Source: Escherichia coli (GTDB lineage Bacteria; Pseudomonadota; Gammaproteobacteria; Enterobacterales; Enterobacteriaceae). From it: a DNA stretch of 64,000 bases. The notes beneath the pieces were generated by a model. It was given only the letters and a program-made list of their open reading frames with translations, did not search any database and had not been told where the DNA came from. Made by a program: the position numbers and the translations under genes. The DNA lies in the NCBI RefSeq assembly GCF_013122565.1, contig NZ_CP053258.1; one strand, given 5' to 3'. Below are positions 4,735 to 17,620 of this stretch, one piece after another (the stretch's first letter is position 1; every line of letters begins with the position of its first letter).

Positions 4735-5427
4735 CTAGTGATAACCACGCGCGGTCATAAAATCCGTAATCGCTTTTTCTGCATCAACCAGCACCTGTTC
4801 CAGTGGCTGATTGGCATCGATATCAACCAGTTGTGCACCACCAAAGGTTAACTGTGGCGTTATGGCAATCTTCCTCGCCAGCGATTCCCGTTTATGGTCG
4901 GGTTTACGCGCGCAGGCAACTTCAAGGTCAACATTGAGTTTGATGACCAGATCAGGCTTATGGCTCGCCATCCAGTGAAACGCTTTACGTTCCTGGCTTG
5001 CCAGCCATGAGACAAAACGACTACCTTCAACGTTAGGTGGGAACACCGTACCATCGTAAGCGCCAGGAATTTGGTCCTGAGGATAACGGTCGGTTAGAAC
5101 AATTAACCCGCGACGACGACAGGCAAGCATATGACGAAAGCGCAGTAAGCGACGGGCGACAAACGCTGTAATTACCAGCGCCGGAACTGGTCCTGGCAAT
5201 TTTTTTGCTGTTTTCACCTGATTTCGTTCAATTGTTTTATGTAAGGATTTTCCCATTAACGGTAATTTTGTCACTGCACGACCGACATTTCCGGCCTGTT
5301 TTCCTAAATGAACTCTTTCGGCAGCACCATATTTTTCGACAACGGTAATGAGATGTTCACACACCGTTGACTTGCCTGAACCATCGCTACCAATAACGGC
5401 AATTAATGGAGGTGTTATTGACTGCAT
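4735..5427 (-). CDS. yghT: P-loop NTPase, thymidylate-kinase-like fold (YghT)
   Basis: 230 aa; Walker [13 protein letters not shown] near N-terminus; DRYPQD motif; paralog of the next two genes. Confidence 0.8.
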
Positions 5428-5600
5428 GAATATATCCTTTAATTTAAATATTCATCCAAAATATTTATTTGGTTAATATGTTTTGATGAAAGCGTAAATC
5501 AGGTCAATGTCATAATTAACCATTGTCACAATAAGGTTGAACGGATATTCTGAGCACGGACCACGTAATATTCAATACATTATTTACTGCCGGGTTTTTC

Positions 5601-6314
5601 GTGAATCAACGTAATATGTCAATAATTAATTCCACGCCAGTGCGTGTTATTGCCATTGTAGGATGTGATGGTTCAGGTAAATCGACCCTCACGGCAAGCC
5701 TGGTAAATGAACTGGCAGCAAGAATGCCAACAGAACGCATTTATCTCGGGCAATCGTCCGGGCGAATTGGCGAATGGATTTCACAGCTCCCTGTTATTGG
5801 CGCACCTTTTGGGCGTTATCTGCGAAGTAAAGCGGCACATGTGCACGAAAAGCCCTCAACACCGCCTGGCAATATTACTGCGCTGGTTATCTATCTGCTT
5901 TCCTGCTGGCGGGCGTACAAGTTTCGCAAAATGTTGTGTAGAAGCCAGCAAGGCCATCTGCTCATCACCGACCGCTACCCGCAGGTTGAAGTGCCGGGTT
6001 TTCGCTTTGATGGCCCGCAATTGGCAAAAACCACGGGCGGTAACGGTTGGATAAAAATGTTAAGGCAGCGCGAGCTGAAGCTGTACCAATGGATGGCGTC
6101 TTATTTGCCCGTATTGTTGATTCGTCTTGGCATTGATGAACAAACCGCGTTTGCGCGTAAACCTGACCACCAACTGGCAGCGTTACAGGAAAAAATCGCC
6201 GTTACGCCGCAACTGACGTTCAACGGTGCCAGGATCCTTGAACTGGATGGTCGGCAACCAGCCGATGAAATTCTGCAAGCGTCACTACGCGCAATTCACG
6301 CCGCGCTTTCCTGA
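5601..6314 (+). CDS. yghS: P-loop NTPase, thymidylate-kinase-like fold (YghS)
   Basis: 237 aa; Walker A IVGCDGSGKSTL; DRYPQVE motif; divergent from yghT. Confidence 0.8.
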   Translation: MNQRNMSIINSTPVRVIAIVGCDGSGKSTLTASLVNELAARMPTERIYLGQSSGRIGEWISQLPVIGAPFGRYLRSKAAHVHEKPSTPPGNITALVIYLLSCWRAYKFRKMLCRSQQGHLLITDRYPQVEVPGFRFDGPQLAKTTGGNGWIKMLRQRELKLYQWMASYLPVLLIRLGIDEQTAFARKPDHQLAALQEKIAVTPQLTFNGARILELDGRQPADEILQASLRAIHAALS

Positions 6315-16107: not shown

Positions 16108-16477
16108 ATACACCACGAAAAAATTGGATATCAAAAATAAAATGACAATAATGCGGTGGATTATATAGGCATAAAAGATAAATGAGATAGTATTTTCATC
16201 AGTGTGAAAATGAACATTGATTTAAATAATAGGTTTGGTTTTGTTGTTTTTATTGTGAATGATATTTAATTTATGAATATATTAAGAAGAAGCCTTGTCC
16301 GGTCGCCTTAAATCGACAAAAGGCATTGTGGCGCTTCTGTGTAGTCTCTGACCTTATCTTAATCATTAATAAATACTATTTATTCTTTATTTGTATTCAT
16401 TGGGTTGATTATTAAGATGCCGTTCGTTGCTGTTGTAACCTGTTTGTCACCGTTAATTATTTGTTATCCACAGAGAT
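16108..16477. promoter_or_regulatory. AT-rich divergent intergenic region, presumed promoters for the lipid operon and yghO
   Basis: About 340 bp of strongly AT-rich sequence with many TATAAT-like hexamers between divergent genes; no specific site assigned. Confidence 0.4.
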
Positions 16478-17620
16478 ATGGAATGCGATCTGCTGATGAT
16501 TAAAATTGAAAAAGTAATTAATAAAAATGACCTTAAGGCATTTATCGCTTTTCCGTCATCACTTTATCCCGACGATCCAAACTGGATACCCCCTTTATTC
16601 ATTGAACGCAACGAGCATTTGTCTGCGAAAAATCCGGGGACGGACCATATCATCTGGCAGGCGTGGGTGGCAAAAAAAGCGGGGCAGATAGTTGGGCGTA
16701 TTACCGCGCAAATAGATACCTTGCACCGCGAGCGTTACGGCAAAGATACCGGTCATTTCGGCATGATTGACGCCATTGATGATCCGCAGGTTTTTGCCGC
16801 GTTGTTTGGCGCAGCGGAAGCGTGGTTGAAGTCACAAGGTGCAAGTAAGATCAGCGGTCCTTTCAGCCTGAATATCAATCAGGAAAGCGGATTACTGATT
16901 GAAGGTTTCGATACACCACCCTGTGCGATGATGCCGCACGGTAAACCGTGGTATGCCGCGCATATTGAACAATTGGGTTATCACAAAGGCATTGATTTAC
17001 TGGCGTGGTGGATGCAGCGAACCGATCTCACTTTCTCTCCGGCGCTAAAAAAACTGATGGATCAGGTGCGCAAAAAGGTGACCATTCGCTGCATCAATCG
17101 CCAGCGGTTTGCCGAAGAGATGCAGATCCTGCGTGAGATTTTCAACTCTGGCTGGCAGCACAACTGGGGATTTGTGCCGTTTACCGAACATGAATTCGCG
17201 ACCATGGGCGACCAACTTAAATATCTGGTGCCGGACGATATGATCTACATCGCTGAGATTGATTCTGCACCCTGCGCGTTTATTGTCGGCTTGCCGAACA
17301 TCAACGAGGCGATTGCCGATCTGAACGGATCGCTCTTTCCCTTCGGCTGGGCAAAATTGCTGTGGCGTTTGAAAGTCAGCGGTGTGCGAACTGCGCGAGT
17401 ACCGCTGATGGGCGTGCGCGACGAGTATCAGTTCAGCCGCATCGGCCCGGTAATTGCGCTGTTATTGATTGAAGCCTTACGCGATCCGTTTGCCCGCCGG
17501 AAGATCGATGCGCTGGAGATGTCATGGATCCTCGAAACCAATACAGGCATGAATAACATGCTGGAACGCATTGGGGCGGAGCCGTACAAGCGTTACCGAT
17601 TGTATGAAAAGCAGATTTAA
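16478..17620 (+). CDS. yghO: YghO; putative acyl-CoA N-acyltransferase-fold protein (candidate lipid N-acyltransferase)
   Basis: 380-aa ORF; fold assignment is from memory of family annotation and is not verified here. Confidence 0.65.
   Translation: MECDLLMIKIEKVINKNDLKAFIAFPSSLYPDDPNWIPPLFIERNEHLSAKNPGTDHIIWQAWVAKKAGQIVGRITAQIDTLHRERYGKDTGHFGMIDAIDDPQVFAALFGAAEAWLKSQGASKISGPFSLNINQESGLLIEGFDTPPCAMMPHGKPWYAAHIEQLGYHKGIDLLAWWMQRTDLTFSPALKKLMDQVRKKVTIRCINRQRFAEEMQILREIFNSGWQHNWGFVPFTEHEFATMGDQLKYLVPDDMIYIAEIDSAPCAFIVGLPNINEAIADLNGSLFPFGWAKLLWRLKVSGVRTARVPLMGVRDEYQFSRIGPVIALLLIEALRDPFARRKIDALEMSWILETNTGMNNMLERIGAEPYKRYRLYEKQI

Follow-up and report, generated by a model that had tools for sequence, protein, structure and literature searches.

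A ceramide-type lipid gene locus between pitB and glcC of Escherichia coli, with a probably inactivating in-frame deletion in spt

The window analysed in this work is a 64,000 nucleotide stretch of an Escherichia coli chromosome (contig NZ_CP053258.1 of the assembly GCF_013122565.1), in which 13 open reading frames (ORFs) are located between the genes pitB and glcC. The gene content and coordinates of this locus (Table 1), which had been claimed in an earlier reading of the DNA made without database searches (the sequence-only reading), agree with the ORF listing and with annotated E. coli genomes. Four of the genes (viz. aasR, cerR, acpR, and spt) form an operon on the minus strand that runs convergent to an lptG-like gene and divergent from yghO across a spacer of about 400 bp. 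The other eight genes are yghT, yghS, yghR, yghQ, a gene for a 274 amino acid (aa) protein (referred to here as Hyp274), a ytfJ-family gene, and a pair of lptF and lptG paralogues (lptF2 and lptG2). Our analyses indicate that this region probably encodes the rhodobacterial ceramide pathway in its enterobacterial version, that its eight other genes travel with the core as one conserved module, and that the serine palmitoyltransferase (SPT) encoded by spt is most likely dead in this strain.

The identities of the core enzymes were examined by means of sequence profiles, solved structures and structure prediction. The alpha-oxoamine synthase encoded by spt scores 535 bits against NF047599, the NCBI model for SPT (cut-off 500; 596 bits for the intact allele), compared with 314 bits against the bioF model (cut-off 426) and 274 bits against the Kbl model (cut-off 460). 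Its closest solved relatives are the SPTs from Sphingomonas paucimobilis and S. wittichii (E 2e-110), with Kbl and BioF following at 1e-50 to 1e-58, and the choice between SPT and BioF/KBL, which the sequence-only reading had named as a check on its proposal, thus falls to SPT. The acpR gene is located directly upstream of spt and overlaps its start by 1 nt, and its product contains the DLGLES serine motif for 4'-phosphopantetheine. AasR scores 868 bits against the fatty acyl-AMP ligase model NF006624, and the best solved relatives of the short-chain dehydrogenase/reductase (SDR) are the NDUFA9-type subunits of complex I; the Caulobacter CerR protein is likewise NDUFA9-like (PMC11087976). The identities to the Caulobacter proteins are those of Table S2 of Padilla-Gomez et al. 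(2022; PMC9386255), viz. 53% for Spt, 44% for YghO and the bCerS protein CC_1154 (E 1e-107), and 34% for the E. coli CerR-like SDR and CC_1164 (E 7e-38). A Cpg-type cluster from a metagenome-assembled genome (MAG; locus L004) served as an independent stand-in, with the ligase and reductase of which AasR and the SDR are 41% and 44% identical, respectively.

The remaining core protein, YghO, showed no match to any Pfam or NCBIfam family, nor to any PDB entry by sequence, and hence it was placed by structure prediction only. The AlphaFold2 (AF2) model of YghO, based on an alignment containing 103 homologues, has a predicted local distance difference test (pLDDT) value of 96.5, and its best Foldseek matches are tandem GNAT acyltransferases (E 2e-15); the acyltransferase fold that had been suspected for this protein is thus predicted with confidence. 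The YghO family comprises 6,502 representatives at E < 1e-3, members of which adjoin LptF/G pairs. The MAG homologue of YghO is divergent to aasR-cerR and is found beside genes for DAGK, Tam41, Metallophos, NTP-transferase and LptF/G proteins, which is the Caulobacter pattern. The E. coli locus therefore contains each of the Caulobacter-type ceramide genes, viz. an SPT-type synthase, a dedicated acyl carrier protein, AasR, an NDUFA9-like SDR, and a bCerS-type acyltransferase, and the match to the Caulobacter set (spt, acp, acyl-ACP synthetase, cerR, and bcerS) put forward in the sequence-only reading is borne out by profiles, by fold and by the published identities of 34-53%.

The same pathway has been studied in another E. 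coli strain. Padilla-Gomez et al. (2022), writing in Frontiers in Microbiology, described the clustered dihydroceramide genes ECD_02850-ECD_02854 of BL21(DE3), which correspond to yghO/aca (ECD_02850), aasR (ECD_02851), epi/cerR (ECD_02852), acpR (ECD_02853), and spt (ECD_02854). Their work demonstrates that E. coli AcpR bears 4'-phosphopantetheine, that it is acylated by E. coli AasR, and that E. coli SPT forms 3-oxo-sphinganine from serine with acyl-AcpR as the preferred substrate (PMC9386255). This biochemistry contradicts the earlier statement that no function had been shown experimentally for the locus in E. coli; the ceramide reading is correct, yet it is already published for this species. 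The RefSeq label for the gene is also already "spt: serine palmitoyltransferase".

The spt gene of the window is 1089 bp in length (362 codons), whereas strain LR-03 and all the other genomes listed have a gene of 1173 bp (390 codons). When aligned, the two forms differ by a clean gap of 84 bp that keeps the reading frame and costs the protein residues 37-64, EGRIGNKKVILAGTNNYLGLTFNHDAIS. In the intact spt gene of LR-03, the lost segment is flanked by CGAAGG direct repeats located exactly 84 bp apart (6 bp exact; 12 of 16 positions when extended), of which one copy is left in the window, and the deletion thus bears the signature of slippage or microhomology between direct repeats. The locus had been described as intact, and this description is refuted by the deletion; the remaining 12 genes are equal in length to those of LR-03, and the only other indels relative to that strain, of 1 bp and 5 bp, are both located in the aasR-yghO spacer. 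The 1-bp indel lies near position 16238, and the 5-bp difference lies just 5' of the yghO ATG (16470-16477), where the window carries AGAGA and LR-03 a tandem AGAACAGAAC. No match to the deletion junction was found with a 46-nt junction probe in any of 5,426 complete E. coli genomes, in which the full-length matches to the spt operon always consist of two pieces spanning the 84 extra bases. The exact 362 aa protein (QJU27012.1; WP_171460368.1) is present in one deposited contig only (4,821,968 bp), and the lost 84-bp segment was not found elsewhere in the window.

The residues lost from Spt align to residues 59-86 of the S. paucimobilis SPT, including its GTYNYMG, and they contain an NNYLGL motif that is conserved in the Spt proteins from Hafnia and Serratia as well as in E. 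coli BioF (SNDYLGLS) and Kbl (ANNYLGLA). The window copy is hence not a full-length Spt with an N-terminal motif of the NNYLGL type, and positions 38-65 of the NF047599 model are left unmatched. We take the lost stretch to be a core beta-strand and an active-site loop of the solved alpha-oxoamine synthases. Since this motif and the conserved active-site segment are missing, it is most likely, as judged from the sequence, that the function of Spt has been lost, with the committed step dead and the locus non-productive in this strain. The shortened protein still scores above the cut-off of the SPT model, and annotation pipelines will therefore not flag the deletion. A strain whose Spt is without a conserved active-site segment is a poor pick for lipidomics; it may, however, serve as a natural spt-null control.

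Two other explanations of the 84-bp gap deserve consideration. If the gap were an artefact of assembly or sequencing, the real strain would possess a normal 390 aa Spt and an ordinary intact locus, and the derivation of this allele from a single deposited chromosome, together with its absence from the 5,426 other complete genomes, would be readily understood. However, the deletion is exactly in frame, and a gap bounded by a direct repeat whose copies lie 84 bp from each other in intact genes is a signature of slipped-strand or microhomology events, unlike typical read errors; the flanking regions are also colinear, and we consider an artefact quite unlikely. Alternatively, the gap may be real and the shortened Spt still active, or active enough for the lipid to be made, an option to which we likewise assign a low probability. 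The reading frame, the region of the lysine that binds pyridoxal phosphate, and the C-terminal domain are unaltered, the identity outside of the gap is 99%, and the protein passes the NCBIfam cut-off for SPT, but the 28 lost residues include a motif retained by the Spt of other genera and by BioF and Kbl, and in the solved enzymes this stretch would be a strand of the core and a loop of the active site.

In contrast to the deletion in spt, the locus itself is common in E. coli. At least 80% of the window positions 4000-18500 is covered in 4,045 of the 5,426 complete RefSeq genomes, and the spt operon is present in 4,067 of these genomes (about 75%), leaving about 25% without it; the strains that have lost the locus include K-12 and O157:H7. 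DNA identity between the window and the full-length copies from other complete genomes of E. coli is 96.5-98.3%, a comparison in which BL21(DE3) was not included. The gene order in MG1655 is glcC-yghO-IS5(insH9)-yghQ(truncated)-yghR-yghS-yghT-pitB, and a K-12-like record aligns solely to positions 4000-8218 and 16518-18500 of the window. In K-12, an IS5 element thus stands in place of window positions 8219-16517 (breakpoint 8218/8219), and approximately the first 356 codons of yghQ remain. These observations agree with the K-12 gene content given in the sequence-only reading (yghO, IS5, and yghQ to yghT, with the central genes missing), and the comparison across the IS5 junction that it called for shows these central genes replaced by IS5. 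An apparently working ceramide pathway, present in about 75% of the complete genomes, is thus missing from the E. coli lipid biology of the textbooks, K-12 having lost it through a deletion associated with IS5; this point has already been made in the literature. The record NZ_CP083273.1, labelled as the BL21 derivative "BL21-RIPL", contains the K-12-type IS5 replacement, although the intact genes of the literature are those of BL21(DE3); this record may be mislabelled or may represent a hybrid strain.

The eight other genes of the locus encode proteins of several different families. YghT, YghS, and YghR are paralogues of 36-40% mutual identity (40% for YghR and YghS), in which the motifs GxDGxGKxT, DRYPQ, and RKPDH are invariant. 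Against the dTMP kinase model TIGR00041 they score 22-31 bits (26 bits for YghT), versus a cut-off of 83. The AF2 model of YghS has a pLDDT of 83 (residues 50-90 are of low confidence), and its best Foldseek matches are thymidylate kinases (E 4e-7, TM-score 0.6-0.7); in this model, a poorly predicted insert replaces the usual acceptor-binding region. The RefSeq name of YghS and YghT as thymidylate kinases is accordingly not supported, the proteins being below the TIGR00041 cut-off and sharing with this family the fold and the P-loop and DRY-type motifs alone. The three paralogues were rejected as homologues of the Caulobacter ceramide kinase CpgB, which is an LCB5/DAGK-domain protein with a GGDG motif, whereas YghR, YghS, and YghT have the P-loop Tmk fold; none of the 17 genes of the Caulobacter cluster is described as a P-loop kinase. 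YghQ has several hydrophobic segments and shows a weak match to the MOP flippases over residues 18-435 (34 bits versus a cut-off of 273), and its orthologues bear the Pfam domain Polysacc_synt. The papers that mention yghQ, yghR, yghS, or yghT give no information regarding their function.

Hyp274 is without a hydrophobic segment, and it showed no sequence match in Pfam, NCBIfam or PDB; no Pfam match was found in any of 20 members of its family. The name of a UniRef entry from Martelella alba suggested a CHAD (polyphosphate-binding) domain, an identity that is not supported in view of the lack of any Pfam match in the 20 members, the lack of a PDB match, and an hhalign probability of 0.4% against E. 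coli YgiF. The YtfJ-family protein scores 213 bits against TIGR01626 (cut-off 151), and its residues 1-26 are hydrophobic and signal-like. LptF2 scores 318 bits against TIGR04407 (cut-off 230) and is 29% identical to the housekeeping LptF of MG1655; the corresponding values for LptG2 are 308 bits against TIGR04408 (cut-off 240) and 28% identity to the housekeeping LptG.

The conservation of these genes as a group was examined in other bacteria. The full set of 13 genes is found in the same order in Hafnia and in Citrobacter amalonaticus and in a rearranged order in Serratia marcescens, and all 13 genes occur together in about 40 species of Enterobacterales, among whose genera the same gene set is retained at 60-85% protein identity. 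A pattern-based scan for Hyp274, which used one genome per species and cannot prove absence in other taxa, identified 62 loci, for which the neighbouring genes were counted within 10 kb. The gene most often found beside hyp274 is yghQ (58 of the 62 loci), followed by the three kinase-fold genes (55 loci), spt, acpR, and cerR (47 loci), ytfJ (47 loci), aasR and lptG2 (46 loci each), yghO (44 loci), and lptF2 (43 loci). About 45 of the 62 loci are from Enterobacterales, most of them with the full module. The phosphate transporter gene pitB is present at 9 of the 62 loci and adjoins yghT only in Escherichia, Pseudocitrobacter, Hafnia, and Citrobacter; since other genera carry the module without it, pitB is a neighbour and not a member of the module. 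In Hafnia, a gene for a 4'-phosphopantetheinyl transferase of the ACPS family adjoins yghO (L006, positions 4570-5226), which could activate AcpR there; no such gene is present in the E. coli locus. Second copies of Hyp274 are found in Pluralibacter gergoviae (L031) and in a Pluralibacter MAG (L038), with the other twelve genes absent within 10 kb.

Outside of the Enterobacterales, parts of the module were observed. In members of the Rhodanobacteraceae (viz. Luteibacter, Rhodanobacter, and Dyella), the genes aasR-cerR-acpR-spt-yghQ-hyp274 are arranged head to tail on one strand, with no YtfJ or LptF2G2 present at these loci, and an OlsC/LpxO-like acyl hydroxylase is present in Rhodanobacter. 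In Rhodanobacter sp. L36 (L060, positions 10804-20758), the genes after yghO on its strand encode an RND pump with MdtA-, MdtB-, and MdtC-like components together with an outer-membrane factor, and a pump of this type may provide an alternative export route in this lineage. Only the sub-module consisting of the kinases, yghQ, and hyp274 is found in Sphingobium, Novosphingobium, Altericroceibacterium, and Sphingomonas of the Sphingomonadales, as well as in Bombella and Oecophyllibacter of the Acetobacteraceae; these groups are classical producers of sphingolipids, and a scattered arrangement of their sphingolipid genes is known. The linkage of the genes supports a role of the yghT/S/R-yghQ-hyp274 sub-module that is connected with sphingolipids. 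In Oecophyllibacter saccharovorans (L009, positions 10001-11317), a 438 aa fusion of two YghT/S/R-type kinase domains is encoded next to two genes for GT4 glycosyltransferases and to the homologues of Hyp274 and YghQ, a neighbourhood that may point to a connection with glycolipid synthesis in the Acetobacteraceae. The wider distribution of this sub-module and the unique deletion in spt are the novel observations of this work, and they are modest ones.

Based upon these results, a pathway may be proposed in which AasR would load a fatty acid onto AcpR, and Spt would condense the acyl-AcpR with L-serine to form 3-oxo-sphinganine, both of which have been demonstrated in experiments with the orthologues from BL21(DE3). 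By homology to the tested Caulobacter proteins, YghO (bCerS/Aca) would then N-acylate the product, and the CerR/Epi SDR would reduce the 3-keto group to yield dihydroceramide; the order of N-acylation and 3-keto reduction is disputed in the literature. Fold and gene linkage suggest that YghT, YghS, and YghR may add phosphate to the lipid or to a precursor of its head group, that YghQ, with Hyp274 as its partner (their genes being presumably coupled in translation), may flip the lipid, and that LptF2G2 with YtfJ may hand it outward to the outer membrane. The accessory modification of the ceramide would probably be a phosphorylation, and in this strain the pathway would be blocked at Spt. We further propose, tentatively and as a possibility about which considerable doubt is warranted, that yghT/S/R-yghQ-hyp274 represents a dedicated sphingolipid sub-module distinct from CpgABC, in which YghT, YghS, and YghR would be lipid kinases of a new class that act on ceramide or oxo-ceramide, the flippase and its partner would bring the anionic product across the inner membrane, and LptF2G2/YtfJ (or a pump of the MdtABC type) would carry it to the outer membrane. 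If this proposal is true, most E. coli would be able to make an undescribed phosphosphingolipid.

The assignment of the region to a ceramide pathway has to be weighed against several observations. In BL21, sphinganine- or ceramide-like spots appeared solely upon over-expression of the first three genes (PMC9386255), and the searchable literature contains no account of sphingolipids made by wild-type E. coli. A periplasmic location is reported for Caulobacter CerR (PMC11087976), but the CerR-like protein of E. coli has no signal peptide. The truncated Spt remains in frame and above the threshold of its model, and its inactivation is argued from the loss of the motif. For the eight accessory genes, the proposed roles are drawn from fold, family and linkage, and the substrate of YghR, YghS, and YghT could be other than a lipid. 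Alternatively, the E. coli locus could be a silent or decaying remnant without a physiological product in any strain, the present deletion and the losses seen in K-12 (to IS5) and in O157 being stages of its decay; in favour of this are the lack of a native E. coli sphingolipid in the searchable literature, the absence of the spt operon from about a quarter of the complete genomes, K-12 and O157:H7 included, and the AT-rich nature of the control region. However, about three quarters of the genomes cover most of the region, the protein identities and the constant gene set across the enterobacterial genera argue for purifying selection, and the BL21 enzymes are active (PMC9386255), and we regard a decaying remnant as unlikely. 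It is also conceivable that the product is some other lipid derived from an alpha-oxoamine, formed from a different amino acid or by a different second acylation, in view of the position of YghO outside of any curated family and of head-group genes unlike those of Caulobacter. This explanation appears highly improbable in light of 3-oxo-sphinganine being produced from serine by the E. coli SPT, the 44% identity of YghO to a tested bCerS (PMC9386255), and the placement of Spt by an SPT-specific equivalog model and not by those for BioF, Kbl or cysteate acyltransferase.

The features of the locus are listed in Table 1. GC-rich long hairpins are present at positions 4696-4724 (between pitB and yghT) and 12070-12104 (between the lptG-like gene and spt), each amid a convergent gene pair, and they are probably bidirectional terminators. 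Scans for promoters and terminators showed no enrichment over shuffled sequence, and just these two long hairpins were noteworthy. The sole Rfam match over positions 3000-19000, to a fluoride riboswitch inside yghQ, was below threshold and was deemed to be due to chance.

Table 1. Genes and other features of the pitB-glcC locus in the window.
Feature	Position	Strand	Basis
pitB, second phosphate transporter gene	3187-4686	+	locus flank
yghT, P-loop thymidylate-kinase-fold paralogue 1, 230 aa	4735-5427	-	ORF and shared motifs
yghS, P-loop thymidylate-kinase-fold paralogue 2, 237 aa	5601-6314	+	AF2 and Foldseek
yghR, P-loop thymidylate-kinase-fold paralogue 3, 252 aa	6346-7104	+	motifs, paralogy
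yghQ, multi-pass MOP/Wzx-type flippase-like membrane protein, 449 aa	7150-8499	+	weak MOP match, hydrophobicity
Hyp274, 274 aa soluble protein without family match	8499-9323	+	start overlaps yghQ stop
YtfJ-family protein, predicted periplasmic	9332-9895	+	TIGR01626
LptF paralogue (LptF2)	9926-10996	+	TIGR04407
LptG paralogue (LptG2)	10993-12072	+	TIGR04408
Terminator-like hairpin, 16-bp stem, between convergent lptG-like gene and spt	12070-12104		
spt, serine palmitoyltransferase gene with 84-bp in-frame deletion, 362 aa not 390	12107-13195	-	
spt deletion junction, single retained CGAAGG direct repeat	13083-13088	-	overlap of two BLAST pieces
acpR, dedicated acyl carrier protein, 82 aa, DLGLES motif	13195-13443	-	
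cerR/epi-like extended SDR reductase, 304 aa, without signal peptide	13475-14389	-	
aasR, fatty acyl-AMP ligase/acyl-AcpR synthetase, 562 aa	14386-16074	-	
AT-rich divergent spacer aasR/yghO, presumed promoters, GC about 0.40	16075-16477		
yghO, bCerS/Aca-type N-acyltransferase, 380 aa, predicted tandem GNAT fold	16478-17620	+	

The closest known system is that of BL21(DE3), whose genes ECD_02850-ECD_02854 occupy the same chromosomal locus in the same order as in the window; the two differ in spt, the window copy being short by 84 bp (28 aa). The published study (PMC9386255) does not treat yghQ, yghR/S/T, Hyp274, YtfJ or the LptF/G paralogues, all of which are carried by the window locus. The sphingolipid cluster CC_1152-CC_1168 of Caulobacter crescentus (Olea-Ozuna, 2021, 2024; Stankeviciute, 2022; Zik, 2022) has the same five ceramide genes as the E. 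coli locus and likewise includes a second pair of LptF/LptG genes along with a putative flippase gene, and the flippase, LptC2, and LptF2/LptG2 of this cluster have been proposed as exporters of phosphosphingolipids (PMC11324152). The E. coli locus is distinguished from it by the lack of counterparts of CpgA/B/C, CC_1152/1153/1158, and LptC2, no DAG-kinase-type CpgB, Tam41-like CpgC or CpgA being present among its 13 genes, and it contains instead three thymidylate-kinase-fold proteins, Hyp274, and a YtfJ-family protein. Because the CpgABC counterparts are lacking, the head group, if any, is expected to differ from ceramide phosphoglycerate. Of the ceramide-type system envisaged in the sequence-only reading, the functional assignment of the five genes and their association with export-type genes have thus held, whereas the locus is neither intact nor unstudied and its accessory genes are not head-group genes of the Caulobacter kind.

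At the level of individual proteins, the top solved relative of the intact E. coli Spt is the S. paucimobilis SPT (PDB 2JG2), to which residues 3-385 are aligned (E 2e-110), and it is the equivalent of residues 59-86 of this structure that is missing from the window Spt. The LptF2/LptG2 pair differs from the lipopolysaccharide (LPS) extractor LptB2FG in being 28-29% identical to the housekeeping pair and in having no LptB or LptC gene in its locus. The likeness of LptF2/LptG2 to this extractor consists of scores above the curated cut-offs and of a periplasmic domain flanked by transmembrane segments, and as a second LptFG pair they may export a non-LPS lipid.

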